A stretch of DNA of 64,000 nt, taken from NCBI GenBank assembly GCA_039922495.1, contig JBDTEO010000017.1, forward strand, positions 84,430 through 148,429, read 5' to 3'. The first letter of the stretch is position 1. Every line of letters starts with the position of its first letter. The stretch comes from Candidatus Dormibacter sp. GTDB lineage: Bacteria > Chloroflexota > Dormibacteria > CF-121. Positions 10,809 to 58,034 of this stretch are shown piece after piece. The notes under the pieces were generated by a model. The model saw nothing but the letters and a program-made list of their open reading frames with translations, made no database searches and was not told where the DNA came from. The translations under genes and the position numbers were made by a program.

Positions 10809-10821
10809 AGGAGTAATCGCA

Positions 10822-44013: not shown

Positions 44014-44819
44014 GCCAGGCTGTCGCGCTCACGATTGCCGGCTCGGATTCCGGCGCCGGCGCGGGGATCCAGGCGGACCTTAAGACGTTGGCCGCGCTCG
44101 GAATCTACGGTGTCAGCGTCGTCACCGCCGTGACGGCGCAGAACACGCTGGGAGTCCGCGCCGTGCAGGAGATCGAGCCGGCGCTGGTGACCGCCCAGCT
44201 CGACGCGGTGGCGGAGGATTTTTCCATCAGCGCGCTGAAGACGGGGATGCTCGCCAGCGCTCCGGTCATCGAACAGGTGGTTGCCGGAATCCGGCGGCAC
44301 CGGCTCCAACACCTGGTGGTCGACCCCGTGATGGTCGCGAAAAGTGGCGACCGGCTGTTGCGTGAAGACGCGGTCAATGCTCTTCGGACGCTGCTGCTGC
44401 CCCTTGCCGAGCTTGTCACCCCGAACCTTCCCGAGGCCGAGGTCCTCGCAGGACAGGCCATCCACTCAATGGCCGACCGGGTAAGCGCGGCCCGCGCCCT
44501 CCTCGCGCTAGGCGCCCAGGCGGTGGTCATCAAAGGCGGCCATGCCGACCAGGACCCGGTGGTCGATTTGCTGGTGGACCAGGACGGGGTCGAGGAGTTC
44601 CGAGCGCCGCGAATCCACACCACGAGTACGCATGGCACCGGGTGCACCTTCTCTGCGGCGATCGTCGCCGGGCTGGCCCGCGGGCTCGACCATGCCGCCG
44701 CGGTTGGCCTCGCGCGAGAATACGTGTCGGCGGCGCTGCAGCGGGCCGAGCCCCTTGGGCACGGACACGGTCCACTTGGTCATTTCGCCGCAAAGGAGGC
44801 AGCCGATGCCATTCGCTGA
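44010..44819 (+). CDS. thiD: hydroxymethylpyrimidine/phosphomethylpyrimidine kinase
   Basis: LTIAGSDSGAGAGIQADLKT N-terminal ThiD signature; ribokinase-fold C-terminal GTGCT. Confidence 0.9.
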   Translation: MSQAVALTIAGSDSGAGAGIQADLKTLAALGIYGVSVVTAVTAQNTLGVRAVQEIEPALVTAQLDAVAEDFSISALKTGMLASAPVIEQVVAGIRRHRLQHLVVDPVMVAKSGDRLLREDAVNALRTLLLPLAELVTPNLPEAEVLAGQAIHSMADRVSAARALLALGAQAVVIKGGHADQDPVVDLLVDQDGVEEFRAPRIHTTSTHGTGCTFSAAIVAGLARGLDHAAAVGLAREYVSAALQRAEPLGHGHGPLGHFAAKEAADAIR

Positions 44820-45438
44820 TCGCGACCTCGAATATCTCGAAGGCGTGCACGCACCGATGGGGCCGGTCCTCACGGAAATGCTCGAGGTGGGCCGGGCGGA
44901 GAAGATCCCGATCCTGCAGCCGTCCGCGGGACGATTCCTTCGCGTGCTTGTGATGGCGGTCGCGCCCAAACGCGTCCTCGAGATCGGTACGGCGATCGGG
45001 TTCTCCACCCTCTGGATAGCCGGCGCGCTCGCCGAGGGGGCACGGATCGATACCATCGACCCCGATCGCGCGCGAACCGATCGCGCCCGCCGCTATTGGT
45101 TGCGGGCCGGCGTCACCGACAAGATCCGCGTCATCAACGAACCGGCGCTGCGGGTGCTGCCTCGATTGGCTCCGGGAATCGAGTTTGCGTTCATCGATGC
45201 CATCAAGACGGAGTACATCGCTTACCTGGATGGGCTGCTGCCCAAGATGGCAGCCGGCGGGGTGATCACCGCCGACAACGTCCTTTGGAGCGGGCGAATC
45301 GCCGCCGGCGACCGGGACGAGGACAGCGCGGCGCTTCGGGCCTTCAACGAATACTTCCTGCATCACGACCAACTCGAGGCAACCGTTCTTCCCGTGGGCG
45401 ACGGCCTGGCCGTCGGCGTCGTCCGCCCGCACGCCTGA
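44806..45438 (+). CDS. class I SAM-dependent O-methyltransferase, family 3 (caffeoyl-CoA/catechol OMT-like)
   Basis: VLEIGTAIGFSTLW SAM motif I and FAFIDAIKTEY / DNVLWSG blocks typical of OMT family 3; AAAGGAGG RBS; overlaps the thiD 3' end by 14 nt. Confidence 0.7.
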   Translation: MPFADRDLEYLEGVHAPMGPVLTEMLEVGRAEKIPILQPSAGRFLRVLVMAVAPKRVLEIGTAIGFSTLWIAGALAEGARIDTIDPDRARTDRARRYWLRAGVTDKIRVINEPALRVLPRLAPGIEFAFIDAIKTEYIAYLDGLLPKMAAGGVITADNVLWSGRIAAGDRDEDSAALRAFNEYFLHHDQLEATVLPVGDGLAVGVVRPHA

Positions 45439-45460
45439 GATTCCCGGTACAGTACGTCGG

Positions 45461-46447
45461 TTGCCGCCTGAACCGCCTCCGCCGACCCGGGAACGGGTGC
45501 TGGATGCGTACCGCACCATCCTGCTGGCCCGCGCCCTCGACGATCGTCGCTTTCTCCTGAACCGCGTCGGCAAGCTGGCCTTCATCATCTCGCCGCGGGG
45601 ACACGAGGTCGCGCAGGTGGCGGCCATCACGGCGCTGGAACCCGGCCGCGATCGATTCTGTCTTTACTACCGGGACTTTGCCGCCGCCCTCGCGTGTGGC
45701 TTTACGCCTCGCGAGCTGATGCTCGGCGCGTTTGCGCGGGCGGGCGATCCGTCGAGTGGCGGCCGGCAGACACCTGGGAATTTCGGCAGCCGGCGTCGGG
45801 GGGTGGTGATCGGGTCCAGCACCGTCGGACCGCAGATCCCCAAGGCCGCGGGGATCGCGCTGGCGCTCAAATGGCGGGGCGATGGCGCGTTGTGTTTCGT
45901 GAGCTTTGGCGAAGGTGCCACCAGCCAGGGCGACTTTCATGAAGGCCTGAATTTCGCCGCGATTCACCGCTGTCCGGTGATCTTTTTTTGCGAGAACAAT
46001 CACTGGGCTATTTCCGTGCCGCAGCCCTTGCAGGTGGCTGGCCCCGGCGTGGCTGAGCGCGCCGCTGCCTACGGCATCCCGGGGGTGCGCGTTCGCGGCG
46101 ATGACTTTTTCGGGGTTCACGCCGCCGTCAGCCACGCGGCCCGGCGGGCCCGCGCCGGCGAGGGGCCCACCCTGATCGAGGCTGAGGTCGTTCGGCTGCA
46201 GTCCCATTCCACCGACGACGACCAGCGGGCCTATCGCGAGGCGTCTGACCTCTCGGCGGAAGCGACCAAGGATCCGATTCCGCGTCTGCGCGAGACCCTG
46301 ATCAGCCGCGGCTGGCTGACGGTCGACACTGATCGCGAAATGACCAATCGGCTCACGGTGGAAGTGGAACGAGCGACCGACGAGGCTGAAGTGGCCCCGG
46401 ACCCTGATCCGGCGACGCTGGCCCGCCACGTGTACGCCGATGCCTGA
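45461..46447 (+). CDS. 2-oxoacid dehydrogenase E1 component alpha subunit (TPP-dependent)
   Basis: TPP-binding GEGATSQGDFHEGLNFAAIHRCPVIFFCENNHWAIS. Confidence 0.85.
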   Translation: MPPEPPPPTRERVLDAYRTILLARALDDRRFLLNRVGKLAFIISPRGHEVAQVAAITALEPGRDRFCLYYRDFAAALACGFTPRELMLGAFARAGDPSSGGRQTPGNFGSRRRGVVIGSSTVGPQIPKAAGIALALKWRGDGALCFVSFGEGATSQGDFHEGLNFAAIHRCPVIFFCENNHWAISVPQPLQVAGPGVAERAAAYGIPGVRVRGDDFFGVHAAVSHAARRARAGEGPTLIEAEVVRLQSHSTDDDQRAYREASDLSAEATKDPIPRLRETLISRGWLTVDTDREMTNRLTVEVERATDEAEVAPDPDPATLARHVYADA

Positions 46448-47426
46448 GCGCACCCTGGTGCAGGCGGTTCGGGATGCCCTGGCGGAAGAGATGGAACGGG
46501 ACGAGCGTGTCTGTGTGCTGGGTGAGGACGTCGGCCTGAAGGGCGGCGTGTTCAAAGCGACCGAGGGGCTGCAACGACGGTTCGGAGCGCAACGCGTGCT
46601 CGACACGCCACTCGCCGAGTCCAGTATCGCGGCCGTGGCCCAGGGCCTGGCGCTCGAGGGCTATCGCCCGGTCGCGGAGATGCAATTTGCCGATTACAGC
46701 TTCCCGGCGTTCAACCAGATCGTCAACGAGATCGCCAAGATTCGCTATCGGTCGAACGGCGATTTCTCCTGCCCGCTGGTGATCCGGGCTCCGACCGGCG
46801 GTGGCGTTCGCGGCGCCCTGTATCACTCGCAATCCGTCGAGGCCTACTACTGTCATGTGCCGGGCCTCAAGGTTCTTCTGCCCTCAACCGCCGCCGACGC
46901 CAAAGGCCTGCTCAAGGCCGCCATCCGCGACCCTGATCCGGTCATCTTCCTCGAGCCCAAGAAGCTATACCGCGCCGAGCGGGGTGAGGTGGCCGACGGC
47001 GACGCCGCCTTGCGACCGATCGGCGAGGCCCTCGTGGTTCGACCCGGCTCGGCCCTGACGGTGATCACCTATGGCTTCATGCGCGCCGTGTCGCTGGAGG
47101 CGGCGGGGATCCTGGCGCGGGAAAATATCGACGTTGAGGTGATCGACTTACGTACGCTTCGGCCCTGGGACGTCGAGGCGTGCGTGCGTTCGGTGCGACA
47201 GACCGGGCGGGTGGCCGTGGTCTACGAGGCCAACCGCACCGGTGGGTTCGGGGCCGAGGTCGCGGCGGAGCTCGCCGAACGTTGCTTTGCCGACCTCGAT
47301 GCGCCCGTGACGCGTATCGCCAGCCCGGATGTCCCCGCGATGCCCTTCAATCCCGGGCTCGAGGACGCCTATATGCTCAATCCGGAAAAAATCGCCGACC
47401 GGCTCGGGGCCCTGGCGCGCTACTAG
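46440..47426 (+). CDS. 2-oxoacid dehydrogenase E1 component beta subunit
   Basis: Transketolase-like pyrimidine-binding and C-terminal domains (LGEDVGLKGGVFKATEGLQ); overlaps E1 alpha by 8 nt. Confidence 0.85.
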   Translation: MPERTLVQAVRDALAEEMERDERVCVLGEDVGLKGGVFKATEGLQRRFGAQRVLDTPLAESSIAAVAQGLALEGYRPVAEMQFADYSFPAFNQIVNEIAKIRYRSNGDFSCPLVIRAPTGGGVRGALYHSQSVEAYYCHVPGLKVLLPSTAADAKGLLKAAIRDPDPVIFLEPKKLYRAERGEVADGDAALRPIGEALVVRPGSALTVITYGFMRAVSLEAAGILARENIDVEVIDLRTLRPWDVEACVRSVRQTGRVAVVYEANRTGGFGAEVAAELAERCFADLDAPVTRIASPDVPAMPFNPGLEDAYMLNPEKIADRLGALARY

Positions 47427-47986: not shown

Positions 47987-48871
47987 GTGGGCACGGTGGC
48001 GAAAGAACTGCGACCCCGATCGAGCGCGCGGAACGGCGTCTTCATCTCCGTCGATATGGAGGGGATGGCGGGGGTGGTGCACCTCCACCAGGTGATGCGT
48101 GGGACGCCGGAGTATGCGAGCTCCTGCCGTTTGATGACGGCGGAGACCAACGCCGCGGTGGCCGGCGCGCGTCGAGCGGGGGCGACCCGATTCGTGGTCA
48201 ACGATTCGCATGGCGATATGCGCAACCTTGTCCTCGACGAGCTCGACGCCGGCGTCGAGGTGATCACCGGCGCCGATAAGCCGTACTCGATGGGCGCCGG
48301 CCTGGACCCGACGTTCGAGGTCGCCTTCTTTGTCGGGTACCACGGTTCGGCCGGCACCGAACGGGCCGTCATGGACCACACCTACGGCGGCCGGACCATC
48401 TACGCGCTGCGGATCAATGGGCGAGAGCAGAGCGAGGCGACGCTGAACGCCGCGCTCGCCGGGACTTTCGGCGTGCGGACCGGGCTGATCACGGGAGATC
48501 GGGCCACGATCGACGAGGCGACAGCGGAGCTGCCGGGGATCGAGGGGATCGTCGTCAAAGAGGCCCTCGGCCGGCAAGCCGCGCGGTCAGTGCACCCGGT
48601 CGAGGCCTGCCGCCAGATCGAGGAGGGCGCCCACCGCGCTTACTCCGACTGGGCTCGCCGTCCCCTCTACCAGCCGAAGGGACCGTTCACCCTCGAGATC
48701 GACTGGATGAATACCAGTATGGCGGACCTCTGCGTGCAACTCCCGGACGTGGAGCGTACCGGCGGCCGGACCGTCCGCTACCGGACGGCCGATTTTCAGA
48801 CCTGCTACCGGATGCTGCTCGCCCTGATGGTGATGGCAATCCCGGCCGCCTACCAGTACCCGCGGCCTTGA
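47987..48871 (+). CDS. dppA: D-aminopeptidase DppA (peptidase M55)
   Basis: ISVDMEGMAGV and VNDSHG blocks collinear with B. subtilis DppA. Confidence 0.75.
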   Translation: MGTVAKELRPRSSARNGVFISVDMEGMAGVVHLHQVMRGTPEYASSCRLMTAETNAAVAGARRAGATRFVVNDSHGDMRNLVLDELDAGVEVITGADKPYSMGAGLDPTFEVAFFVGYHGSAGTERAVMDHTYGGRTIYALRINGREQSEATLNAALAGTFGVRTGLITGDRATIDEATAELPGIEGIVVKEALGRQAARSVHPVEACRQIEEGAHRAYSDWARRPLYQPKGPFTLEIDWMNTSMADLCVQLPDVERTGGRTVRYRTADFQTCYRMLLALMVMAIPAAYQYPRP

Positions 48872-49890
48872 CGCCCGCCGAAGCGATCGAGCAACTCCTG
48901 CAGGGCACGCCGCTGAGCCGGGAGCAGGCGCGCGGGGTCATGGACCAGGTGATGGCGGGCGAGTCGACGCCGGTCCAGATCGCCGGGGTGGTGATCGCGT
49001 TACGCGCGAAGGGAGAGACGGTCGAGGAGATGGCGGGCTTCGTCGACTCGATGCGGGCCCACGCGACCCCCCTGCAAGCGCCGGACGGTGCCATCGATAC
49101 CTGCGGGACCGGTGGGGATCGTGCCGGGACGTTCAACATTTCCACCGCCGCCGCCATGGTGGCCGCCGGCGCTGGCGTGCCCGTGGCCAAGCACGGCAAT
49201 CGGGCGGCCTCCAGCCGCTGTGGCAGCGCCGATGTTCTGGAAGCGCTTGGCGTCGACATCACGCTCGGGCCTCACGGGGTCGAGTCGTGTCTTCAGGCGG
49301 CTGGGATGGGCTTCTGTTTCGCTCCCACGTTCCATCCAGCGATGCGGCACGCGGGACCGACCCGACGCGAGCTCGGCGTGCGCACGGTCTTCAACGTCCT
49401 GGGCCCGCTGGCAAACCCCGCTCACGTCCGCCACCAGGCGCTTGGTGTTGGCGCGCGCGGGCTGGCCCCATTGATGATTCGCGTGCTGAGGGACCTCGGC
49501 CATGAGCGGGCGCTGGTCTTCTACGGCGAGGACGGCCTGGACGAGCTCACCACGACCGGGCCATCCCATGTCTTTCAATTGATCGACAGCGAGCTCAGCG
49601 ATTACGAGCTCGATCCGCAGGACCTCGGGATCAAGCGGGCCTCGGCCGCGGACCTCCTCGGGGGAACGCCCGCCGAGAATGCCCGCCTGATCACGGATGT
49701 CCTGAATGGCGAGGCCGGGCCCAGGCGCGACGTCGTGCTTCTCAACGGCGCCGCGGCGCTGATCGCGGCGGGCCGGGCGAATGATTGGCGTCAGGCGCTC
49801 GCACAGGCCGCCGACTCCCTTGATTCGCGGCAGGCCGCGGCTGTACTCGAGAAGTTGGTCAAGACGTCACAGTCCGCGACCGGAACGTAA
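48868..49890 (+). CDS. trpD: anthranilate phosphoribosyltransferase
   Basis: CGTGGDRAGTFNISTAAA and KHGNRAASSRCGSADVLEALG TrpD signatures. Confidence 0.9.
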   Translation: MTPAEAIEQLLQGTPLSREQARGVMDQVMAGESTPVQIAGVVIALRAKGETVEEMAGFVDSMRAHATPLQAPDGAIDTCGTGGDRAGTFNISTAAAMVAAGAGVPVAKHGNRAASSRCGSADVLEALGVDITLGPHGVESCLQAAGMGFCFAPTFHPAMRHAGPTRRELGVRTVFNVLGPLANPAHVRHQALGVGARGLAPLMIRVLRDLGHERALVFYGEDGLDELTTTGPSHVFQLIDSELSDYELDPQDLGIKRASAADLLGGTPAENARLITDVLNGEAGPRRDVVLLNGAAALIAAGRANDWRQALAQAADSLDSRQAAAVLEKLVKTSQSATGT

Positions 49891-49902
49891 TGCGGCGGTC
49901 GC

Positions 49903-50025
49903 CTAGCCGGCAGCCAGGCCGACGACGGCACTGGCCAGGAGGAGCATGCAGAGCATGCCGGCAACAGCCCAGACGGCCCAGTAGGTGACCCCGGACAACC
50001 TGCGGTTGCGACGAAGTCGTCGCAT
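49903..50025 (-). CDS. possible small membrane peptide (40 aa) between trpD and the dehydrogenase gene
   Basis: Arg-rich N-terminus then one hydrophobic helix (MRRLRRNRRLSGVTYWAVWAVAGMLCMLLLASAVVGLAAG); may be spurious. Confidence 0.2.
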   Translation of the reverse strand: MRRLRRNRRLSGVTYWAVWAVAGMLCMLLLASAVVGLAAG

Positions 50026-50132
50026 CTTGCCCAAGGTCCGGCTCGCTGTCTGCTGTTCGGTAAGCATCCTCTAGGGTATCGCGGGAATGGGCCGAATCTT
50101 TCTCTCGAAAGCGGCTCGATATGCTGTAGTCG

Positions 50133-51206
50133 ATGCCGCTGCGGATCGCCGTCGTCCCGGGTGATGGCATTGGGCCCGAGGTCATCGAGCCGGGCGTTCG
50201 CGTTCTCCAGGCGGCCACGTCAGGCCAATCGACGTCGTTGCAATTTACGTTCTATGACATCGGAGCCGACCGATATCTTCGGACCGGCGAGATCCTGCCG
50301 GAGAGCGTGTTCACTGAGCTGGCAGCGGCGGATGCGATCTACCTCGGCGCCATCGGCGACCCTCGGGTCAAGAATCCGCAGTACGCGGCCGGCATTTTGT
50401 TACGTCTGCGATTTGAGCTCGACCTCTGGGCCAACCTGCGTCCCTCAACGCTGCTTGCCCCGGCGCTGACACCGTTGCGAGACGCCCCGCACATCGATCT
50501 GATCGTGGTGCGCGAAAACACCGAGGGCGCCTACGTCGGCATCGGTGGACAGTTCAAGCGCGGGACGATGGAGGAGGTCGCGATCCAGGAAGACATCAAC
50601 ACACGAATCGGGGTCGAGCGGGTGCTGCGCTTCGCGTTTGCCCTGGCGCATGAACGCCGGGCGGCAGGGCACTCGGGACGACTCACGATGGTCGACAAGA
50701 GCAATGCGATGTATCACGCCCATGACCTCTGGCAGCGAGTCTTCGCGCTCGAGCGTGAGCGCGCACCCGACATCGAGGCGCAGCACCTCTACGTCGACGT
50801 CGCGGCGATGCAGCTGGTCCGGCGACCGGCCGACTTTGATGTCCTCGTAACGTCCAACATGTTTGGCGACATCCTCAGCGATCTGGCATCGGAGCTTGTC
50901 GGCGGCCTCGGCCAGGCGCCCTCGGCGAACATCAACCCCGACACGCGCCGCGGGCTCTTCGAGCCGGTGCACGGATCCGCTCCGAAGCATGCAGGGAAAG
51001 GCACCGCCAACCCGGTCGGGGCGATTCTCTCGGGCGCCATGATGCTGCGTCACCTTGGGGCAACCGAGAGCGCCGACCGGATCGAGCGCGCCGTCGCGGC
51101 GGCCGTGCGCGAGGGAGCGGCGACGAAGGATCTTGGCGGCTCGCTGACGACGCAGGCTGCGGCTGAGGCCATCCTCGACAGGCTCGAGCCATTGCGCTCC
51201 GGGTGA
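50133..51206 (+). CDS. isocitrate/isopropylmalate dehydrogenase family protein (3-isopropylmalate, homoisocitrate or tartrate dehydrogenase-like)
   Basis: RIAVVPGDGIGPEV N-terminus and NMFGDILSD signature. Confidence 0.8.
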   Translation: MPLRIAVVPGDGIGPEVIEPGVRVLQAATSGQSTSLQFTFYDIGADRYLRTGEILPESVFTELAAADAIYLGAIGDPRVKNPQYAAGILLRLRFELDLWANLRPSTLLAPALTPLRDAPHIDLIVVRENTEGAYVGIGGQFKRGTMEEVAIQEDINTRIGVERVLRFAFALAHERRAAGHSGRLTMVDKSNAMYHAHDLWQRVFALERERAPDIEAQHLYVDVAAMQLVRRPADFDVLVTSNMFGDILSDLASELVGGLGQAPSANINPDTRRGLFEPVHGSAPKHAGKGTANPVGAILSGAMMLRHLGATESADRIERAVAAAVREGAATKDLGGSLTTQAAAEAILDRLEPLRSG

Positions 51207-51255
51207 GAGAATCGTTGGTATCGACGCCCTGCTGAACACCATCCAGCCCGCACGG

Positions 51256-53271
51256 GTGAAGCCGAACGCTCCGCCCTCACCGCGACCCGCCGCCAAACGC
51301 CCTGGTAGTGCCGGGAGCACCGACCACACGATTCGGGGAAGCGCGCTGATCTTCTGGGATCGGAAGATCCCAGGCAAGAAGCTCGATGCCATCGATACCG
51401 ACCAGATCACGCCGGCCGACGATTGCGTGTCGGAGAGCCTGGACCGGCTCGACGAGCGGTGGAAGGCCGGGTCATTTCGGTATCTCATGCCCGACTTCCG
51501 GCAGCGCGTCCATCGGGGTGAGAACTTCGTCATCGCCGGAGAGCGCTTCGGCATCGGCTCATCGCGGGAGATGAGTCCGGCCGGTCTCAAGGCGGTTGCC
51601 GAAGAGGTGGGCTCGGAGCTCGTGATTGTCTGTGGCGATGGAGTGGGGGACATCTTTCGTCGAAACGCCCTCAACCTCGGGCTCACGGTCGTCCAGAGCC
51701 GCGACGCGGTCGAAGACTCGCAGGAAGGCGATCAGTTCTCCCTCGACCTGTCCACTCGGCGGCTGACCAACGAGACACGACACAAGACCTACGAGCCGGT
51801 ACCGCTGACTCCAAAGGAGGAGGACATTCGTCGCTCGGGCGGCATCATCGCGATCGGCCGTCGGGAGTTTAGCGAGTCGGTCGAGCGCAAGCCCGCCGTG
51901 GAGTGGGCCAGCGCGACAACGGCGCGGACGCTGAGTACCTCAGAGCAGATTGTCTGGGCGCACCGGGTCGACAAGGATGCCGAGGTGCGGCCGGGCGCAA
52001 CGCTCCGCGTCTGGTGCGACCTGTTGCCGGCGTCGGACGGGACCGCGCCCTTCTCGATCCACACCTTCAACCAGATCAGCGGTGGGAACACGATCTTTCC
52101 GCGCCAGGCTGCAATCGCGAACGATCACTTCGTCTTCTCCGGCCGCAATGCCGATGACAAGCAGACGTCGATCGGGCGCGACTTCGCCCGGCTGCAGGGG
52201 ATCGGCAAGCCGTACTACGCGACCCCCGGCGATGGCATTTTTCATTTTTATTTTCCCGAGCAGGGCCTGGTCATCCCGGGCGCGTTCATCCCGGGAGCCG
52301 ACTCGCACAGCCGCGCCTACGGCGCCTACGGGGCGATCGGCGTTGGCGTGGGCAGCACGCAGCTCGGGTTCGGCTGGTCGACCGGTTACATCTATTTCAC
52401 GCCGGCCAGACGCCGCCGCGTGGTCTTTACCGGCCGGCTGAGGCCCTGGGTCAGCGGCAAGGACGTGGTCCTGGCCCTGCTGCGACGGTGGGGCAAGGGG
52501 CAAGCACAGGGCATGAGCGTGGAGTTCGTGGACGCCGAGCGGCAGCTGCCAATTCCATACCGGAACACGATCGCCAACATGATGGCGGAGGCCGAGGCCC
52601 AGAACGGCATCTTCGCGTCGGACGAAATTACGCTCGACTGGTACCGGCGTAAAGGCATCACGAACCTGCCCTATCCGACCATCAAGCCTGGAGACGATAT
52701 CGCCTGGGACATCGACGAAACGCTGGATCTTTCTGAACTCGTGCCATACGTGGCCAAGCCGTTCGCACCCGGGAACGCCTTTCCTGCTGACGAGATCGCC
52801 CAGGAAAAGCTGCGCTTCGACAAGGCCTTCATCGGCTCCTGCACCAACGGGGGCTACGACGATCTGCTCGAAGCCGCGCTCGTCCTCCGCGCCGGTCGTG
52901 AAAAGGGTTTCGAAAAGGCGCCGCAGCAGTTCGTCGTCTTTCCTGGTTCGGGCAGCGTCAAACGGGATATCGAAAACCCGGAGCCCCGGCTCGGCGGTGA
53001 ATCGATCGCCGCGACGCTCCGGTCCGCCGGGGCCGAGATCCGCGATTCGTGGTGCGGGCCCTGCTTCGGCCAGGGCCCCGATGCACTGAAGAAGGGCGAG
53101 GTCGCGATCACCTCGTTCAATCGCAACTGGCAGAACCGGATGGGCGTCGGTGGCCTTGGCTACCTCGCGAGCCCGGCGGTCGTCGCCTCATCGGCGCTGC
53201 TGGGCTACATGGCCGGGCCATCGTCCCTCGGGATCGAGTGGGATCCCGAGCGCTTCGACGTCTCTGTCTAG
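51256..53271 (+). CDS. aconitase-family dehydratase with permuted fusion: LeuD-like swivel domain N-terminal, LeuC-like catalytic domains C-terminal
   Basis: N-terminal ENFVIAGERFGIGSSREMSPAGL and DIFRRNALNLGL (LeuD-like); C-terminal PGADSHSRAYGAYGAIGVGVGST and FIGSCTNGG (LeuC Fe-S ligand regions). Confidence 0.75.
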   Translation: MKPNAPPSPRPAAKRPGSAGSTDHTIRGSALIFWDRKIPGKKLDAIDTDQITPADDCVSESLDRLDERWKAGSFRYLMPDFRQRVHRGENFVIAGERFGIGSSREMSPAGLKAVAEEVGSELVIVCGDGVGDIFRRNALNLGLTVVQSRDAVEDSQEGDQFSLDLSTRRLTNETRHKTYEPVPLTPKEEDIRRSGGIIAIGRREFSESVERKPAVEWASATTARTLSTSEQIVWAHRVDKDAEVRPGATLRVWCDLLPASDGTAPFSIHTFNQISGGNTIFPRQAAIANDHFVFSGRNADDKQTSIGRDFARLQGIGKPYYATPGDGIFHFYFPEQGLVIPGAFIPGADSHSRAYGAYGAIGVGVGSTQLGFGWSTGYIYFTPARRRRVVFTGRLRPWVSGKDVVLALLRRWGKGQAQGMSVEFVDAERQLPIPYRNTIANMMAEAEAQNGIFASDEITLDWYRRKGITNLPYPTIKPGDDIAWDIDETLDLSELVPYVAKPFAPGNAFPADEIAQEKLRFDKAFIGSCTNGGYDDLLEAALVLRAGREKGFEKAPQQFVVFPGSGSVKRDIENPEPRLGGESIAATLRSAGAEIRDSWCGPCFGQGPDALKKGEVAITSFNRNWQNRMGVGGLGYLASPAVVASSALLGYMAGPSSLGIEWDPERFDVSV

Positions 53272-53530
53272 AAGTCCTCGGCTCAGAAGCTACGCAAGAA
53301 GGCCGGCCTTCCTGAGCGCGTACGCCGATTCGGCGCCCTTCGAGACTGTTTCGGGAATCAATGTCCGCCTTGTGGGCGCAGGATGACGACCCGAGGCCAT
53401 CCCATCGCTGACTTGCGCGACCTGGAAGACCCTCGTGCCGGTGGCCCCACCCAGAATTGCCGAATGCGTTGACTGGTCCTCGCGCCGATAGGCGCGAACA
53501 TGCGCCTCAGCGTTGGATCCTTCCGCGAAG

Positions 53531-54772
53531 TCAGGTGAGCGCCCTCGTTGATCGCGTCTTGACAATCGCATGCACCTCCGCCTCATGCAGTAGATGATTG
53601 CCCTGCTTGGCGTGCTCGACAATCGCGCGGACCAGGTCTGGATTGGGCGCGATGCCGCGCTGCTCGAGCCAGTAGATGACGTTCGATTCGCCGCTCATCG
53701 GGCCGATCTCGATCACCTGCTGGCAACCGAACAGGTCCGCCGGGACACCTGAGTAAACCCGGTTGGCGAGCCAGTCGTCACCCTTGCGCATGGCCTTGAT
53801 CACGGCGGCCGCATGGACGCCGGTGGCTGTCCGAAACGCATCGGCACCGAGGACGGGATAGTTCGCCGGGATGGCCATCCCGGTTCCCTCGGCGATGATC
53901 TCACCCATCTCCTTCAGCTTGCTCAGGTCGGTGTCGATCCAACCGAGCAGCCTGAAGTTGACGAGCAGCAGGTCGAGGTGCGTGTTGCCGACGCGCTCGC
54001 CGAGACCAAGGGCGCAGCCATGGATTCGGTCGGCGCCAGCGTTGGCCGCCTCGATGGCGTTGATCAAGCCCAGGCCGCGGTCGCTGTGCCCGTGCCAGTC
54101 CAGGCCTACGTTTGGATTCATCTCATCGAGCATCGTTCGGACGTGTTTGATGATGGCGCGGACGCCGTCAGGCGTGGAGTGGCCGACGGTGTCGCAGACG
54201 GCGACGCGCTGCGCGCCCTCCTCGATGGCCGTACCAAAGAGCCGTTTCAGCGTGTCGGGATGGGCGCGGGTGGTGTCCTCCGTCACGAACATCACCGGCA
54301 ACTGGTGTTCGCGCGCGAACCGGACGGCCTTGCGCGTGTTCTCGACCATCTGGTCGATCGTCCAGCCCTCGGCGTACTGGCGGATGGGGCTCGATCCGAT
54401 GAAGGCCGCGACCTCGATCGGGATTCCGACTCGCTGCGAGATCTCGACGACAGGGCGAATATCCACCTCCAGCGTTCGGGCGGCGCAAAGCGGCTTGATG
54501 CCGAGCCGCTCGTCGCGGATCTCTTCGGCGAGCCGCCCGACGTGCGCGACGGCGCGCGGGCCGGAGCCGGGGAGCCCCAAATCGATGGAGCCGACGCCGA
54601 GCTGGTCGGCGAGATGGAGAAAGCGCAGCTTGACGTCGATCTCCGGGTCGCGGACCGACGGGCCCTGAATGCCGTCGCGCAAGGTCTCGTCGTGGACCGA
54701 TACTCGGTGGGCCGGCGGTGGCGGCGCGTCGACGGTGTTCCAGTCGTAGATCAGGTCGTGCTGCTCAGGCAT
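53531..54772 (-). CDS. 2-isopropylmalate/citramalate/homocitrate synthase family enzyme (short form, no regulatory domain)
   Basis: HDETLRDGIQ, WHGHSDRGLGLINAIEAANAGADRIHGCALGLGERVGN, PANYPVLGADAFRTATGVH; start overlaps the E2 gene end by 8 nt. Confidence 0.75.
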   Translation of the reverse strand: MPEQHDLIYDWNTVDAPPPPAHRVSVHDETLRDGIQGPSVRDPEIDVKLRFLHLADQLGVGSIDLGLPGSGPRAVAHVGRLAEEIRDERLGIKPLCAARTLEVDIRPVVEISQRVGIPIEVAAFIGSSPIRQYAEGWTIDQMVENTRKAVRFAREHQLPVMFVTEDTTRAHPDTLKRLFGTAIEEGAQRVAVCDTVGHSTPDGVRAIIKHVRTMLDEMNPNVGLDWHGHSDRGLGLINAIEAANAGADRIHGCALGLGERVGNTHLDLLLVNFRLLGWIDTDLSKLKEMGEIIAEGTGMAIPANYPVLGADAFRTATGVHAAAVIKAMRKGDDWLANRVYSGVPADLFGCQQVIEIGPMSGESNVIYWLEQRGIAPNPDLVRAIVEHAKQGNHLLHEAEVHAIVKTRSTRALT

Positions 54773-55955
54773 CCGCCCGCTCCAGGCGCTGCACCAGGTC
54801 GGTCAAGAATTCCGTGGCCATCGCGCCGTCGACGATCCGGTGGTCGACGGAGATCGAGATCCATGCCCCGGGGCACGCCACGACCTGCCCATCAACCACC
54901 ATCGGCCGCGGCTTGATGGCGCCGAACCCGACCACGCAACACTCCGGCGGGTTGATGATGGGCGTGCCGGTCTCGATCGGCCCGCTGGCGCCGACGTTGG
55001 TAATCGTGATCGTCCCACCGGTCATCTCCGCCGGCGTCAGCGTCCCGGCCCGAGCCCCTTCGATCAGCCGGCCGCTGTGCTCGGAGATGGCGCGAAGATC
55101 GAGATCGTCGGCGTTCCGGATGACCGGGACCAGCAAACCCTTGTCGGTGTTGACGGCGATCCCGACGTTGACGGCCTCCTTGACGATGATCTCGTCTTTG
55201 GCGTCATCCCACGAGCTATTGAGCATCGGGTATTTGCGGACCGACGCGGCGACGGCGGCAATGAAGTAGGGCAGGGGAGTCATCGAGGCGCCTCCCGCCT
55301 TTGCGGCGGCCCGCTTCTCTCCGAGGGTCGTCGCATCGAAGATGGCGAACTCGGTGAACTGCGGGATGGTCGAGACGGAGCGCACCATCTGCCGCGCGAT
55401 CGCTTTGCGCAGGCCAACGACGCTGACCCGTCGCTCGCCCTCAACCGGCGCGGCGGCTGCCGGCTGCGCGGCGGTGGGGCCGCTGTCGGCGGCGGCCTCG
55501 ACGTCGCCACGCGTGATCCGGCCGCCAGGACCGGTCCCGGTAATCGTCGCGAGATCGACCCCTTTCTCTTTGGCGAGCTGGCGGACGAAAGGCGCCGCCC
55601 GCACGTCTGATGCTGATTCCGGCTGGGGGCTTGGACGTGCACGCCGGCGAACCCCGGTCTCCGGGCCGGCGCCCGGTCCATACCCGACCAGGGTGCTGGG
55701 TGCCGCCTCTTCAACTTCGGAAGCGATCGTGACCAGGGGCGCCCCGACCTCGACCGACTCACCCGGCTTCGCGTGCAGCTTCCGGATCGTCCCACGCCAG
55801 GGCGAAGGGATGACCACGACCGCCTTTGCCGTCTCGACCTCGCAGAGCGGCGCGTTGACGTCAACCTCGGCGCCTTCCTCCACCCGCCAGCTCATCAGCT
55901 GCGCCTCGGTCAGCCCTTCACCGAGGTCGGGAAGGTTGAAGGTCTGGTCAGCCAT
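54765..55955 (-). CDS. 2-oxoacid dehydrogenase E2 component (dihydrolipoamide acyltransferase)
   Basis: Lipoyl domain (LPDLGEGLTEAQLMSWRVEEG ... VETAKA), Ala/Pro linker, catalytic DHRIVDGA; internal ATG at 55955 chosen (upstream ORF extension is junk). Confidence 0.85.
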   Translation of the reverse strand: MADQTFNLPDLGEGLTEAQLMSWRVEEGAEVDVNAPLCEVETAKAVVVIPSPWRGTIRKLHAKPGESVEVGAPLVTIASEVEEAAPSTLVGYGPGAGPETGVRRRARPSPQPESASDVRAAPFVRQLAKEKGVDLATITGTGPGGRITRGDVEAAADSGPTAAQPAAAAPVEGERRVSVVGLRKAIARQMVRSVSTIPQFTEFAIFDATTLGEKRAAAKAGGASMTPLPYFIAAVAASVRKYPMLNSSWDDAKDEIIVKEAVNVGIAVNTDKGLLVPVIRNADDLDLRAISEHSGRLIEGARAGTLTPAEMTGGTITITNVGASGPIETGTPIINPPECCVVGFGAIKPRPMVVDGQVVACPGAWISISVDHRIVDGAMATEFLTDLVQRLERADA

Positions 55956-56913
55956 AGGCGATGACGGTGTCGATGGCCTCGAGAATCCGGTCGACGTCCG
56001 GCAGATAGAGCTTCTCGAAGCGCGATGGGGGATAGGGCACATTGAGGCCGGCGACCCGCTGGACGGGTGCCTCGAGGAGGTCGAAGGCGTCGTGGCTGAT
56101 GCGGGCCGCAATCTCGGCGCCGAAGCCACAGAAGACCGGCGCCTCGTGGACGATGACGGCGCGATGCGTCTTAGTAACCGAGGTCATCACGGCATCCATG
56201 TCGAGCGGGGAGAGGCTGCGCAGGTCGATGACTTCGACGGAGGTGCCGTCTTCGGCGGCAGCCTTGGCCGCCTGCAGTGCCGTCTGCACCGTCGGCCCGT
56301 AGCCGATCACCGTCACCGCCGTCCCCGCCTGCCGCACACAGGCCTTGCCGATCGGGATGCGGGCGGCCGGGTCGACCTCTGCCTTGAGGTAATAGCGGGC
56401 CTTCGGTTCGAAGAAGACGACCGGATCGTCGTCGGCGATCGCGGCGCGGAGCAGCCCATAGGCATCGCCAGGGGTCGAGGGCGCTACCACCTTGAGGCCG
56501 GCCGTGTGGGCGAAGTACGCCTCGGGGCTCTCGGAGTGATGCTCGACCGCGCCGATGTTGCCACCAAATGGGACTCGGATGGTGATCGGCAGCGAGATGC
56601 CCGAGCGGTTTCGATACTTGGCGACGTGGCTGACGATCTGCTCGAAGGCGGGATAGATGAAGCCATCGAACTGGATCTCCGGAATCGGGCGGAATCCCCG
56701 CAGGGCGAGACCGATGGCGACCCCGATGATGGCCGACTCCGCCAGCGGCGTATCGAAGACGCGCTCCTCGCCGAACTCTTTCTGCAGGCCGTCAGTGATC
56801 CGGAAAACGCCCCCCAGCGCGCCGACGTCCTCGCCAAAAATCAGGGTGTCCGGGTCGGCGCTCAGTGAGTCGCGCAGGGCCTGGTTGAGCGCCTTGGCCA
56901 TGGTGGCTTCCAT
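55948..56913 (-). CDS. 2-oxoacid dehydrogenase E1 beta subunit
   Basis: Transketolase-like beta-subunit blocks (FGEDVGALGGVFRITDGL, FEPKARY). Confidence 0.85.
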   Translation of the reverse strand: MEATMAKALNQALRDSLSADPDTLIFGEDVGALGGVFRITDGLQKEFGEERVFDTPLAESAIIGVAIGLALRGFRPIPEIQFDGFIYPAFEQIVSHVAKYRNRSGISLPITIRVPFGGNIGAVEHHSESPEAYFAHTAGLKVVAPSTPGDAYGLLRAAIADDDPVVFFEPKARYYLKAEVDPAARIPIGKACVRQAGTAVTVIGYGPTVQTALQAAKAAAEDGTSVEVIDLRSLSPLDMDAVMTSVTKTHRAVIVHEAPVFCGFGAEIAARISHDAFDLLEAPVQRVAGLNVPYPPSRFEKLYLPDVDRILEAIDTVIAYG

Positions 56914-57998
56914 CAGGGTTGCTCTAGCGAGGCTTCGAACTCCTCGCGTTCCTTGACGAACGGCTCGGGTGGTGACTGGTAAACGCCGCCGTAGACGGCC
57001 TCGCCGGCTGGAGGCATCGGCGCGTTGAGGAGCTTCTCGCGCATCTCTCTGGCAATACCTTCCGCCTCCTCGATCACGGCCCGATCCGCCGCCTCGTCGA
57101 GCACCCCGGCTGCCGTCAGGGTCGTCTTGAAGCGGGCGATCGGGTCCTTTGCCGACCAGGCGTCGACATCAGCGGCGAGACGGTAGCGTGTCGGGTCGTC
57201 GGAGCTGGTGTGGGCGCCCATGCGGTACGTGACGGCCTCGATCAGATACGGCCCTTCGCCGCTTCGCGCGCGGTCGGCCGCGACCTTGACGGCGCCGTAA
57301 ACCGCGAGGATGTCGTTGCCATCGATCCGGATGCCTGGAAAGCCGTAGCCCGGGGCACGTTCGGCGATCGACCCCGCCGTCTGCTTGTTGAGGGGCACCG
57401 AGATCGCCCAGTAGTTGTTCTGGCAGAGGAAGACCACCGGCGAGCGAAAAACGCCGGCAAAATTCATCGCCTCGTGCCAGTCGCCTTCGGAAGTCGCCCC
57501 ATCGCCGAAGGTCACGAGGACGGCTTCGTCAGTCTTCTTCAGCCGGCAGCCCATGGCAAAGCCGACGGCGTGTGGAATCTGCGTTGCCACGGGAATCGCG
57601 AGCGGGGCAAAGTGATACCGTTGCGGATCCCAGGCGCCGTGGGTCAGGCCTTTGAAGAGGGTGAGCATCGCGGCCGGGTCGACGCCGCGGCACATCGCCA
57701 TGCCGAATTCCCGGTAGCTCGGAAAGATCCAGTCCGTCTCGCGCAGGGCTATCGTCGCGCCGACGTGGACCGCCTCCTGCCCGAGGAATTGGCCCCACAA
57801 GCCGAGCTGCCCCTGGCGCTGCAGGTTCAGGGCCTCCTGGTCGGCTCGACGGATGACGACCATCCATCGATAGAGGTCGCGGAGCGCCTCTGGGTCCAAT
57901 CCCAGGGATTGCCGAGCCTCGTTCGACAGCGTTCCGTCGGGTGCGAACAGGCGACGAACGGGGTCCGCGGCGCGTATCACCTCGACGACGTCTGCCAC
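56913..57998 (-). CDS. 2-oxoacid dehydrogenase E1 alpha subunit (TPP-dependent)
   Basis: FGDGATSEGDWHEAMNFAGVFRSPVVFLCQNNYWAIS TPP motif; GTG start at 57998 chosen because the first 99 codons of the ORF-track ORF are non-homologous read-through. Confidence 0.8.
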   Translation of the reverse strand: MADVVEVIRAADPVRRLFAPDGTLSNEARQSLGLDPEALRDLYRWMVVIRRADQEALNLQRQGQLGLWGQFLGQEAVHVGATIALRETDWIFPSYREFGMAMCRGVDPAAMLTLFKGLTHGAWDPQRYHFAPLAIPVATQIPHAVGFAMGCRLKKTDEAVLVTFGDGATSEGDWHEAMNFAGVFRSPVVFLCQNNYWAISVPLNKQTAGSIAERAPGYGFPGIRIDGNDILAVYGAVKVAADRARSGEGPYLIEAVTYRMGAHTSSDDPTRYRLAADVDAWSAKDPIARFKTTLTAAGVLDEAADRAVIEEAEGIAREMREKLLNAPMPPAGEAVYGGVYQSPPEPFVKEREEFEASLEQP

Positions 57999-58034
57999 CG
58001 GTGACAATCGTATACCCGGGTATCGTAGAGCTAG

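Follow-up and report, generated by a model that had tools for sequence, protein, structure and literature searches.

A LeuA/HCS-family synthase gene overlap-coupled to an E1alpha-E1beta-E2 operon in Candidatus Dormibacter

Results

Gene content and coupling at the locus

The locus comes from the uncultured soil bacterium Candidatus Dormibacter and was analysed in its window, the whole 64,000-nucleotide stretch of DNA under study. A sequence-only reading had placed seven genes between 48868 and 57998, and our reading of the window together with profile matches found all seven at those coordinates and bore out each assignment at the family level. They are listed here with three further features of the window.

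5565-5852, minus strand: MerR/HTH_17 gene
5893-7215, plus strand: second HMGL-like gene
45461-47426, plus strand: second E1alpha/E1beta pair, BCKDH-like, without an E2 of its own (Pfam)
48868-49890, plus strand: trpD (anthranilate phosphoribosyltransferase), outside the module (TIGR01245, 401 against a cut-off of 199)
50133-51206, plus strand: LeuB-like beta-decarboxylating dehydrogenase (Iso_dh; NF002898, 404.1 against a cut-off of 393)
51256-53271, plus strand: fused, circularly permuted LeuD-LeuC-like Fe-S dehydratase with the small-subunit domain at the N-terminus; gene convergent with that of the synthase
53531-54772, minus strand: short-form synthase of the LeuA/HCS family, 413 aa, closing the operon (PF00682, HMGL-like)
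54765-55955, minus strand: E2 dihydrolipoyl acyltransferase, 396 aa (Pfam lipoyl, E3-binding and catalytic domains)
55948-56913, minus strand: E1beta (Pfam Transket_pyr and Transketolase_C)
56913-57998, minus strand: E1alpha, PdhA/BkdA type, of a heterotetrameric 2-oxoacid dehydrogenase, opening the operon (PF00676)

The four minus-strand genes are coupled by overlaps, which we read directly from the sequence. E1alpha starts with GTG at 57998 (an alternative in-frame TTG lies at 58007), 36 nt from a divergent gene, and its stop shares 1 nt with the E1beta start in TGATG. The E1beta stop and the E2 start (ATG at 55955) overlap by 8 nt in ATGGCTGA, and the E2 stop and the synthase start overlap by 8 nt in ATGCCTGA, just as the sequence-only reading had described. 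No terminator-like site was found at any junction of the four genes, which are probably co-transcribed. The operon contains no E3 (lpd) gene, and no trp gene besides trpD was identified within the window.

The order of E1alpha, E1beta and E2 and the coupling of their cistrons are shared with pdhABCD of Bacillus and Geobacillus (heterotetrameric E1alpha2beta2, E2, E3), from which the operon differs in lacking E3 and in having a LeuA-family synthase as its fourth gene, in the slot that lpd holds in Bacillus. Overlap alone, however, is not proof of a shared pathway, because the window has many short overlaps (1-8 nt), some of them between unrelated genes, such as trpD and the M55 peptidase gene upstream of it (4 nt).

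PDH, not BCKDH, is the nearer relative of E1alpha and E2

On the PdhA-type model TIGR03181, E1alpha scores 421.1 and so clears the cut-off of 411.35; its best solved relative is the Geobacillus PDH E1alpha (1w85, 235.6 bits), with human and Thermus BCKDH at ~216, so that the gap between the two types is only about 20 bits. The best solved relative of E2 is likewise Geobacillus PDH E2 (3duf_I, 252.9 bits), and its catalytic domain alone scores 179 bits with Geobacillus 1b5s, against 139 with Mtb BkdC (3l60) and 128 with Listeria BCKDH E2 (3mae). E1beta and E2 do not reach the curated cut-offs. The PdhA/BkdA clade also includes M. tuberculosis BkdA, and the bkdABC operon of that organism encodes a BCKDH. 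Since E1alpha and E2 are both nearer to Geobacillus PDH than to BCKDH, the predicted product of the complex is most likely acetyl-CoA, made from pyruvate. Acetyl-CoA is the donor of the synthase, and the mismatch perceived by the sequence-only reading, in which the elongation chemistry "does not need this acyl-CoA", therefore disappears.

The second E1 pair (45461-47426), which follows an O-methyltransferase gene, has as its best solved relative the Thermus 2-oxoacid (branched-chain) dehydrogenase 1um9 (229.7 bits, against 162 for PDH) and scores 284 on TIGR03181, under the cut-off. It is kept in the related loci L004, L086, L089 and L090, and may be a further client of the operon's E2. The presence of this BCKDH-like pair without its own E2 only 6 kb away fits a dedicated acyl-CoA-forming pathway, in which a branched-chain or broad-range E1/E2 complex would convert an elongated hydrophobic 2-oxoacid into an acyl-CoA for use as a fatty-acid starter unit (e.g. 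isovaleryl-CoA) or as a beta-oxidation substrate. We consider such a pathway unlikely: for E1alpha and E2, PDH is the nearer relative, and no acyl-CoA-consuming enzyme (FabH, acyl-CoA dehydrogenase) is encoded in or beside the operon.

A short-form synthase with intact catalytic residues and a hydrophobic pocket

PF00682 is the only domain of the 413-aa synthase, and a regulatory domain is absent; in the acyl-CoA-forming pathway, doubtful as it is, this absence would release flux from amino-acid feedback. Like the short-form homocitrate synthases of Thermus and Sulfolobus, Sulfolobus IPMS and Leptospira LeuA2, none of which has a regulatory domain, the enzyme consists of a DRE-TIM barrel with two small C-terminal subdomains. 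It scores below half the cut-off on every equivalog model, falling far short on those for IPMS, CimA, HCS and NifV (best 195 against 517), although the poor sampling of its phyla may by itself account for low curated-model scores. The catalytic motifs DETLRDG, HGHxD, GERxGN and TGVH are kept, with the catalytic Arg/Asp, the metal-binding HxH, the Glu-Asp pair and His320, and Thermus HCS aligns end to end (residues 26-389) with all catalytic residues shared, including the TGVH His.

The substrate pocket reads A97/M161/V163/A191/H251. It is hydrophobic (Ala/Met/Val/Ala) and lacks the His/Arg with which HCS, reading His/Arg/Thr(Ser)/Ser/His at these five positions, binds the distal carboxylate. 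The pocket has no residue in common with the five-residue fingerprint of IPMS (Leu/Glu/Ser/Asn/Glu; PMC12961565 Table 1), and the Leu/Tyr of Leptospira CimA is missing too. The gatekeeper Ala is that of the benzylmalate synthase HphA, an enzyme for bulky substrates, where this residue (Ala73) is important for substrate specificity (PMC12961565); the other four pocket residues differ, and the fingerprint as a whole matches none of IPMS, HCS, Leptospira CimA and HphA. Judged by sequence, the enzyme is a member of a large uncharacterised short-form clade, named 2-isopropylmalate synthase or LeuA family protein by the JGI and NCBI pipelines and marked by an invariant N-terminal (Y/F)DW motif. The clade-wide fingerprint, Ala/Met/Val/(Cys,Val,Ala)/His, shows little or no variation across phyla at four of the five positions; this suggests a single specificity, conserved and distinct, and to that extent favours the acyl-CoA-forming pathway.

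The MerR/HTH_17 and HMGL-like genes at 5565-7215 are present as the sequence-only reading had it, but the pocket of this second paralogue is basic (Trp/Arg/His/Arg/Asn) and not LeuA/CimA-like. Its 81-83% identical homologues are labelled 'citrate (Re)-synthase' by JGI/IMG, and at the distal-carboxylate positions it has Arg/His/Arg where the 413-aa synthase is hydrophobic.

A fused dehydratase and a LeuB-like dehydrogenase depart from canonical leucine enzymes

The fused dehydratase, which is 100% identical to an NCBI 671-aa 'aconitase family protein [Candidatus Dormibacter sp.]', is indeed a permuted LeuD-LeuC fusion. Residues 44-201 match LEUD_arch (under cut-off), residues 229-655 match the aconitase large subunit, and residues 229-657 match PRK00402/LEU2 (under cut-off). 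The motifs GSSRE, DSH, GSCTNG and CGPC are present, and the specificity loop reads PADDCVSES where canonical enzymes have YLV/YLRT. Aconitase B also carries a swivel (small-subunit) domain ahead of the catalytic domains in one polypeptide, but the fused dehydratase is IPMI/homoaconitase-like, scores 44-72 bits on AcnB models, lacks the HEAT-like domain and has just 671 aa. Among solved structures the LeuB-like enzyme comes closest to M. tuberculosis LeuB (1w0d, 281.6 bits) and next to tartrate dehydrogenase (253), and in it the IPMDH motif LERGLLL reads YAAGILL, a Glu-to-Ala change.

Synthase, isomerase and oxidative decarboxylase are thus all present, as proposed, and the three chemistries are those of canonical leuABCD and cimA. 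The enzymes are nonetheless not generic leuABCD: the synthase lacks the feedback domain and the IPMS and CimA residues, the LeuB Glu is lost, and LeuD and LeuC are fused in reverse order with a different specificity loop. The module of synthase, LeuB-like dehydrogenase and LeuD-LeuC fusion is, on its sequences, not canonical, and the non-canonical residues at substrate-contacting positions of all three enzymes also fit the acyl-CoA-forming pathway. A comparable trio of LeuA-, LeuCD- and LeuB-like enzymes with a remodelled pocket is found in cyanobacterial HphA/HphCD/HphB (Phe/Tyr homologation; cf. plant MAM/IBMS), from which the present clade differs in being near-universal in whole phyla and in lying in core-genome contexts, not natural-product clusters.

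A disguised oxidative TCA branch, in which PDH would feed a Re-citrate synthase while the fused dehydratase served as aconitase and the LeuB-like enzyme as isocitrate dehydrogenase, would be a logical gene set, and Re-citrate synthases reportedly fall in the LeuA/HCS family. We regard this as highly improbable. The synthase offers the C4 carboxylate no basic residue (Met161 and Val163 stand where HCS has Arg and Thr/Ser), and both the Arg/His/Arg and the IMG label belong to the other paralogue. The dehydrogenase motif is hydrophobic (AAGILL), with scores of 146-256 bits on full-length IDH models whose cut-offs are 432-567, and relatives have a canonical AcnA and a Citrate_synt gene.

The coupling is conserved within one lineage

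The order E1alpha-E1beta-E2-synthase recurs in 10 further Dormibacteraeota-like loci (L001-L006, L086, L088, L089 and L090), where the gene calls give an E2/synthase overlap of 1-8 nt. The flanks vary, yet every sampled member, to about 80% identity, retains both order and overlap, and the arrangement exceeds chance. Wherever the flank suffices, the operon has the leuB-like gene and the fused dehydratase gene beside it in convergent orientation.

Among the 77 loci from other phyla, none has E1/E2 beside the orthologous synthase (54-61% identity). There the synthase fills the leuA slot in Syn-leuC-leuD(-leuB) or leuB-Syn operons (Syn, synthase), and its neighbours are leuB, leuCD, genes for thiolase, hydroxyacyl-CoA dehydrogenase and enoyl-CoA hydratase, or an M20 peptidase gene, with an ADP-forming acyl-CoA ligase also recurrent. 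In several deeply branching parts of the synthase tree it shares operons with genes for thiolase, hydroxyacyl-CoA dehydrogenase, enoyl-CoA hydratase and acyl-CoA dehydrogenase, and in five loci leuB/leuCD share a gene string with the synthase and acyl-CoA enzymes. The Syn-linked LeuC/LeuD of other phyla score at or just under the LEU2/leud cut-offs. A long-form LeuA was found neither in 91 loci (L001-L086, L088-L092) nor in the window. In one Terriglobia locus the synthase has a canonical type-1 leuCD at a distance of 7 kb, a hint that this clade may in some cases be an additional paralogue.

The co-operons with acyl-CoA enzymes and the non-canonical enzymes are what stands of the dedicated pathway proposed by the sequence-only reading, an interpretation that is as a whole partly supported. 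The E1/E2 linkage, by contrast, is limited to one clade, and with 0/77 loci outside it cross-phylum conservation gives a dedicated dehydrogenase-synthase pathway no support. Acetyl-CoA supply, moreover, explains the beta-oxidation neighbours equally well: thiolase, hydroxyacyl-CoA dehydrogenase, enoyl-CoA hydratase and the ADP-forming ligase fit a theme of donor supply to the acetyl-CoA pool.

The same distribution bears on whether there is any functional link, or simply housekeeping genes compacted next to the dcw cluster, with the 8-nt overlap as the genome's usual packing. The frequent overlaps and the linkage being absent beyond the lineage would agree with mere packing, as would the core-chromosome setting (SDH, H+-PPase, ribose-5-phosphate isomerase and MraZ), the unrelated genes that separate the operon from the leuB/dehydratase pair in L001-L003 and L090 (ABC transporter and GNAT in some), and the solitary fused dehydratase of L084 and L085. 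Constancy of the four-gene order and overlap despite varying flanks, the place of the synthase in the lpd slot and the independent ties of its clade, in other phyla, to further genes that generate acetyl-CoA make this explanation improbable.

Discussion

We tentatively favour, at somewhat under even confidence, an elongation of hydrophobic 2-oxoacids of the Leu/Ile type with acetyl-CoA from a PDH-type complex. A PdhABC-type core (E1alpha, E1beta and E2) would oxidise pyruvate to acetyl-CoA, and the translationally coupled last cistron, a Claisen-condensing LeuA/HCS-family enzyme without regulatory domain, would join it to what we infer to be a hydrophobic monocarboxylic 2-oxoacid. The LeuD-LeuC fusion would isomerise the 2-alkylmalate and the LeuB-like dehydrogenase would decarboxylate the isomer oxidatively. 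The 2-oxoacid would thereby be lengthened by one carbon, as in leucine or isoleucine synthesis (by way of isopropylmalate or citramalate).

In weighing the elongation, we counted for it the overlaps, the lack of terminator-like sites, the 10-locus conservation, the PDH affinity of E1alpha and E2, the intact catalytic residues and hydrophobic pocket of the synthase, the leuA slot elsewhere and the LeuB-like enzyme passing NF002898. Counted against it were the lack of a curated-model match, the 0/5 IPMS fingerprint, the HphA-type gatekeeper Ala, the lost LeuB Glu and YLV loop, the Terriglobia leuCD, the ~20-bit PDH/BCKDH gap and the near-cut-off scores of the Syn-linked LeuC/LeuD. The TCA branch was already disfavoured on the pocket, the dehydrogenase motif and scores, and the relatives' AcnA and Citrate_synt.

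Rather than a proven new pathway, the locus probably brings together, in a compact arrangement, genes of central metabolism and of branched-chain amino-acid metabolism. Under the favoured elongation, what links complex and synthase would be their common pyruvate/acetyl-CoA node, and the operon fusion, specific to this lineage, would have originated inside the Dormibacteraeota.

Gene organisation and conservation of the locus

All the genes listed in the sequence-only reading were recovered in place, as two convergent sets, with the dehydrogenase complex and the synthase on the minus strand and their presumptive partners, together with trpD, on the plus strand:

48868-49890, plus strand: trpD
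50133-51206, plus strand: LeuB-like dehydrogenase
51256-53271, plus strand: fused dehydratase (671 aa), LeuD-like over residues 44-201, then LeuC-like over 229-657
53531-54772, minus strand: HMGL-like synthase (413 aa)
54765-55955, minus strand: E2
55948-56913, minus strand: E1beta
56913-57998, minus strand: E1alpha

Direct inspection of the sequence gave TGATG at the E1alpha/E1beta junction, ATGGCTGA at the E1beta/E2 junction and ATGCCTGA at the E2/synthase junction, so that the 8-nt overlap claimed between E2 and the synthase is real. A promoter and terminator scan, in which regional counts were at chance level, found no terminator-like sites at the operon junctions. The E1alpha start lies 36 nt from a divergent CT398/Zn-ribbon gene, and the spacer (57999-58034) holds a perfect 12-nt palindrome, ATACCCGGGTAT, which could be an operator or a hint of leaderless transcripts. 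The operon is set among core chromosomal genes, which encode succinate dehydrogenase, H+-pyrophosphatase, ribose-5-phosphate isomerase and, where the dcw cluster begins, MraZ; the G+C content of the window is 63-70%, and close homologues of the synthase carry the label Candidatus Dormibacteraeota.

The trpD gene is solitary, with no further trp gene identified within the window, and a 4-nt overlap joins its start to the end of an M55 D-aminopeptidase gene (47987-49890, plus strand), a pair retained in two related loci (L004 and L090). Because such unrelated genes also overlap in the same window, pure gene packing, by which the coupling of E2 to the synthase would have no functional meaning, keeps some weight as an explanation, and we consider it quite improbable.

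The E1alpha-E1beta-E2-synthase order was found again in 10 further loci of the same Dormibacteraeota-like lineage (L001-L006, L086, L088, L089 and L090), with synthase identities of ~80-92% and E2/synthase overlaps of 1-8 nt in the gene calls. In every one of these with enough flank, the leuB-like gene and the fused dehydratase converge on the operon, with an ABC transporter and two other genes inserted between the two sets in L001-L003, and a GNAT gene in L090. The layout is a stable feature of the lineage and no single-genome accident. In the window the convergent synthase and fused-dehydratase genes are 259 nt apart. In L089 the convergent synthase and fused-dehydratase stop codons overlap by 4 nt (11227-11230), leaving no space for terminators.

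The operon ends in a LeuA/HCS-family synthase with a distinct pocket

The synthase retains the DRE-TIM Claisen-condensing apparatus, namely DETLRDG (residues 28-34), HGHxD, E165/D166, GERxGN and TGVH320, and DETLRDG, H227/H229, E165/D166 and H320 are each at least 90% conserved across its clade. It therefore has the D-x-T-L-R-D-G motif, metal-binding HxH, Glu/Asp pair and catalytic His of (S/T)G(V/I)H that define membership of the LeuA/HCS superfamily. Its short architecture is that of Thermus homocitrate synthase (HCS), to which it aligns over residues 26-389, while E. coli LeuA aligns to it through LeuA residues 2-306 only; PF00682 is the sole domain in the 413-aa protein, which has no LeuA_dimer regulatory domain.

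On every curated model for isopropylmalate synthase (IPMS), citramalate synthase (CimA), HCS or NifV, the protein scores less than half of the cut-off. With TIGR00973, NF002086-8, NF041069 and TIGR00970 as IPMS equivalog models, the best IPMS-type score was 195 bits against 517 (NF002085), and TIGR00973 gave 149 against 599. The corresponding values were 178 against 414 (TIGR02146) and 160 against 463 (TIGR02660) for HCS/NifV, and 123 against 450 (TIGR00977) and 72.5 against 950 (NF042433) for CimA. An HMG-CoA lyase, suggested by analogy with leucine catabolism beside bkd genes, was rejected, since the lyase model gave E = 8.6e-6 compared with 1e-57 for synthase models. A literature search on Dormibacterota leucine/PDH metabolism or a Chloracidobacterium leuA-like gene returned nothing usable.

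Five pocket positions are highly conserved within HCS and IPMS (PMC12961565, Table 1), and we transferred these to other family members by HMMER alignments, with N. meningitidis 3rmj as the IPMS reference.

Residues at the five pocket positions
HCS: His/Arg/Thr/Ser/His
IPMS: Leu/Glu/Ser/Asn/Glu
HphA (benzylmalate synthase): Ala/Asp/Ala/Met/Ser
Leptospira CimA (3ble): Leu/Asn/Tyr/Phe/His
Operon synthase: Ala97/Met161/Val163/Ala191/His251

The IPMS fingerprint is absent from the synthase, and Ala97 and Met161 replace the His/Arg pair that reads the distal carboxylate in HCS (Thermus His72, Arg133). Leptospira CimA (mapped onto chain 3ble) has Leu81 and Tyr144 where the synthase has Ala97 and Val163. 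Because CimA evolved several times, the synthase may nonetheless have CimA activity. Judged by pocket and label, the synthase does not look like a Re-citrate synthase, its pocket being hydrophobic and without basic residues for the C4 carboxylate of oxaloacetate. Ala97, Val163 and His251 are invariant in the 86 clade members, in all contexts; 81 of the 86 have Met161, and Cys, Val or Ala occupies the fourth position. As judged from these alignments, the clade has one conserved, fully hydrophobic pocket, which is predicted to exclude 2-oxoglutarate and oxaloacetate and fits no characterised specificity. The synthase shares with HphA the gatekeeper Ala that was tied to acceptance of bulky side chains in the HphA study (PMC12961565).

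The partner enzymes also depart from canonical motifs

The LeuB-like protein narrowly exceeds the cut-off of an actinobacterial LeuB model (NF002898, 404.1 against 393), scores 282 against 353 on TIGR00169, and has M. tuberculosis LeuB as its best solved relative. It lacks the Glu conserved in the E-x-G-L-L loop for substrate and NAD (Thermus Glu87/88): M. tuberculosis LeuB reads LERGLLL there, and this protein YAAGILL. In other phyla, eight loci have a synthase-adjoining leuB-like gene with the same replacement of Glu by Ala (HAADILL/HAKDILL); in L015, L021 and L075 that gene retains the Glu.

All three cluster cysteines are present in the fused dehydratase, as are DSH and GSSRE, and the protein falls under every cut-off (286 against 385 for PRK00402; 68 against 246 for TIGR02084). 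Its specificity loop is PADDCVSES, with DDCVSES in place of YLV(Y). In other operons with the synthase, where LeuD is a separate protein, its loop reads GRYCH, GRWCH or ARHCT, with a common Cys at the position of the Leu in the YLV/YLRT motifs of archaeal and type-2 isomerases; these synthase-linked LeuC and LeuD proteins score at or just below the LEU2/leud cut-offs. Among MAGs labelled Dormibacteraeota or Limnocylindria the fusion keeps 73-86% identity, and in two loci of other MAG lineages (L084:10001-12040 and L085:10001-12040, 75-76% identical) it stands alone, with neither a leu-like gene nor a synthase nearby; both have a classical aconitase A gene 4-8 kb upstream of it.

A homocitrate/alpha-aminoadipate route, suggested by the HCS-like architecture and by M20 peptidase neighbours in other phyla, was rejected: the synthase has no His/Arg pair, no Arg loop is present in LeuD, and LeuB has a hydrophobic loop.

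The dehydrogenase complex is probably of pyruvate dehydrogenase type

E1alpha exceeds the trusted cut-off of the PdhA-type model TIGR03181 by a small margin (421.1 against 411.35), and E1beta and E2 fall under curated cut-offs. Among solved relatives of E1alpha, Geobacillus pyruvate dehydrogenase (PDH) gave 236 bits, and the human and Thermus branched-chain 2-oxoacid dehydrogenases (BCKDH) ~216 bits. For E2 the Geobacillus PDH gave 253 bits; its catalytic domain by itself scored 179 with Geobacillus, 139 with M. tuberculosis BkdC and 128 with the Listeria BCKDH E2. No lpd (E3) gene was found within 10 kb in any locus examined. Because E1alpha passes TIGR03181, and because Geobacillus PDH outranks the BCKDHs for both E1alpha and E2, these scores favour a PDH, which we consider the probable identity of the complex. 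The assignment is insecure because the margins are small, no E3 gene lies nearby and M. tuberculosis BkdA presumably belongs to the same E1alpha clade (TIGR03181). The sequence-only reading had seen a mismatch between the acyl-CoA made by the complex and the donor used by the synthase; if the complex is a PDH, this disappears, because its product, acetyl-CoA, is the donor of every LeuA-family synthase.

A second E1alpha/E1beta pair lies at 45461-47426 (plus strand), its genes overlapping by 8 nt, with an O-methyltransferase gene (Methyltransf_3) 5' of it (44542-47426 for the trio). This pair is BCKDH-like (230 bits with Thermus BCKDH, 1um9, against 162 with PDH), has no E2 of its own alongside, and the E2 at 54765-55955 may serve it as well. 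L004, L086, L089 and L090 all retain the trio.

The synthase belongs to a large family found in other gene contexts

An exhaustive search of cluster representatives (50% identity clusters) placed the synthase in a large family of ~400-430-aa proteins, with more than 150 clusters aligned over their full length (33-57% identity, 230-485 bits), as against 124 bits for the nearest solved homologue. Their source names are '2-isopropylmalate synthase' or 'LeuA family protein' (NC10, Myxococcota, Patescibacteria and others). Two closed chromosomes, OY969474.1 and OZ245024.1, also bear a synthase of this clade. Fusions of the synthase to E2 or to enoyl-CoA hydratase (ECH) were sought among these representatives and not found. 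Fusions present instead (P0189, P0199, P0224 and P0229) include some with an N-terminal GNAT/FeeM-like (N-acyl amino acid synthase) domain; one member has a C-terminal 2Fe-2S domain, and P0133, P0147 and P0162 have ~220-aa extensions without a Pfam match.

A scan with one genome per species gave 586 relatives, and gene contexts were counted in the best 80 loci of these, of which 3 are Dormibacteraeota-like and 77, at 54-61% identity, come from other phyla (Acidobacteriota, Planctomycetota, Gemmatimonadota, Zixibacteria, Eisenbacteria, Chloroflexota and others). E1 or E2 adjoins the synthase in none of these 77. Of the recurrent neighbours, an M20 peptidase gene lies 3' of the synthase in 34 loci, which together form one acidobacterial clade; a leuB-like gene adjoins in ~11 and leuC-leuD in 4; and same-strand genes for thiolase, 3-hydroxyacyl-CoA dehydrogenase (HADH), enoyl-CoA hydratase or acyl-CoA dehydrogenase (ACAD) accompany it in ~13, 2 of which have an ADP-forming acyl-CoA ligase. 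The acidobacterial neighbours (within L007-L080) are M20/M28-family peptidases or deacylases on the same strand, mostly at ~0.4 kb or less (for example L023:2665-3768), and one Terriglobia locus has canonical type-1 leuCD 7 kb from the synthase-M20 pair.

The association with leuCD and leuB typical of LeuA is thus present, here through the convergent leuB-like and leuDC-like genes, and elsewhere as Syn-leuC-leuD(-leuB) or leuB-Syn strings (L013, L015, L020, L022, L026, L030, L043, L067, L074, L078 and L081). With E. coli LeuA as query, no long-form LeuA was found in 91 loci (L001-L086 and L088-L092) or in the window, so the clade fills the leuA slot in these operons. When the synthases were placed on a neighbour-joining tree, those in the dehydrogenase-complex context formed a single clade, and the leu and acyl-CoA contexts were mixed across several deep branches; the two occur within one gene string in L015, L021, L043, L075 and L078. 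Two of these are long same-strand strings (L043:3909-14248 and L078:2948-11230) in which the synthase, leuC and leuD stand with an ADP-forming acyl-CoA ligase and with hydroxyacyl-CoA dehydrogenase and/or enoyl-CoA hydratase; L043 has two MetE-like genes and a zinc alcohol dehydrogenase in addition, and L078 has leuB.

The second paralogue is of another type

The window does hold a second HMGL-like gene with a small HTH regulator (5565-7215), as had been described, but the description of its product as LeuA/CimA-like did not survive closer analysis. The product of 5893-7215 (438 aa in the NCBI call) is merely 27% identical to the operon synthase, has a basic pocket (Trp/Arg/His/Arg/Asn at the five positions), and has many homologues at 81-83% identity that JGI/IMG labels 'citrate (Re)-synthase'. 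The divergent MerR/HTH_17 gene (5565-5852, minus strand) is conserved in relatives, as are the 3' neighbours of the paralogue (DUF3352, SCP2, two hot-dog hydratases, acyl-CoA dehydrogenase, SDR and enoyl-CoA hydratase), and in L093 and L094 a classical Citrate_synt gene lies 8 kb upstream. Because of this pocket, identity, labelling, conserved neighbourhood and the Citrate_synt gene of relatives, the paralogue is, as far as sequence comparison can tell, no LeuA/CimA duplicate.

Six packed beta-oxidation-like genes with 1-4-nt overlaps follow at 9521-13690 (plus strand), encoding SCP2, two hot-dog (FAS1_DH/MaoC) hydratase subunits, acyl-CoA dehydrogenase, SDR and enoyl-CoA hydratase; L093 and L094 keep the string downstream of the paralogue, there with a TetR gene in front of it. 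A TCA branch of Re-citrate synthase, aconitase and isocitrate dehydrogenase (IDH) at the operon was rejected on the pocket residues, the IDH model scores and the Re-citrate synthase label falling on this other paralogue.

Possible roles and significance of the synthase clade

The most economical reading, which we hold as plausible if just short of probable, is of Leu/Ile type, with acetyl-CoA from a PDH-type complex. The complex would supply acetyl-CoA, with which a feedback-free LeuA-family synthase would elongate a hydrophobic 2-oxoacid, and the convergent dehydratase and dehydrogenase would complete the elongation cycle. Were the acceptor pyruvate, as in the citramalate route to 2-oxobutyrate, the synthase would use as its two substrates the substrate and the product of the complex; were it 2-oxoisovalerate, the outcome would be leucine synthesis.

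The sequence-only reading had favoured a dedicated pathway, here one in which the elongated 2-oxoacid is converted to an acyl-CoA. All three elongation enzymes depart systematically from canonical pocket residues, and the synthase clade is repeatedly linked to acyl-CoA enzymes, which speaks for such a pathway; we nonetheless think it rather unlikely. The observation and arrangement behind that reading were correct and are conserved, its pathway interpretation is partly supported, and the layout amounts to a variant, specific to this lineage, of systems already known. What is truly new is the uncharacterised synthase clade with its matched partners.

A wider proposal, which we rate as unlikely, is that the synthase clade and the LeuB-like and LeuD variants form a distinct, widespread 2-oxoacid elongation system, separate from Leu/Ile/Lys biosynthesis and wired to acyl-CoA metabolism. 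Its marks would be a synthase with Ala/Met/Val/x/His and an N-terminal YDW, the Glu to Ala LeuB-like protein and a Cys-loop LeuD, which is a separate gene in some phyla and LeuC-fused in Dormibacteraeota. In Dormibacteraeota the 2-oxoacid dehydrogenase complex would provide the wiring; in the loci from Zixibacteria, Eisenbacteria, Gemmatimonadota, Acidobacteriota and Chloroflexota, thiolase/HADH/ECH/ACAD would do so. A possible role is one-carbon lengthening of 2-oxobutyrate or branched 2-oxoacids to an acyl-CoA that is beta-oxidised to acetyl-CoA without propionyl-CoA or B12; another is a supply of starter acyl-CoA free of feedback.

Dormibacteraeota, Acidobacteriota and their neighbours are abundant, mostly uncultured soil phyla, and metabolic reconstructions of them now file this synthase as '2-isopropylmalate synthase'. 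Its conserved active-site fingerprint fits no characterised family member. The members of the clade are small soluble targets for biochemistry, and the operon fusion with a PDH-type complex offers a concrete handle, with expression coupled to the acetyl-CoA source. If the synthase makes isopropylmalate or citramalate, it would represent a fourth solution to the pocket and a natural feedback-free enzyme of use in engineering branched-chain products. If it makes neither, calls of leucine/isoleucine prototrophy would be wrong in thousands of MAGs, and there would be an elongation pathway, tied to acyl-CoA metabolism, that has gone unrecognised.
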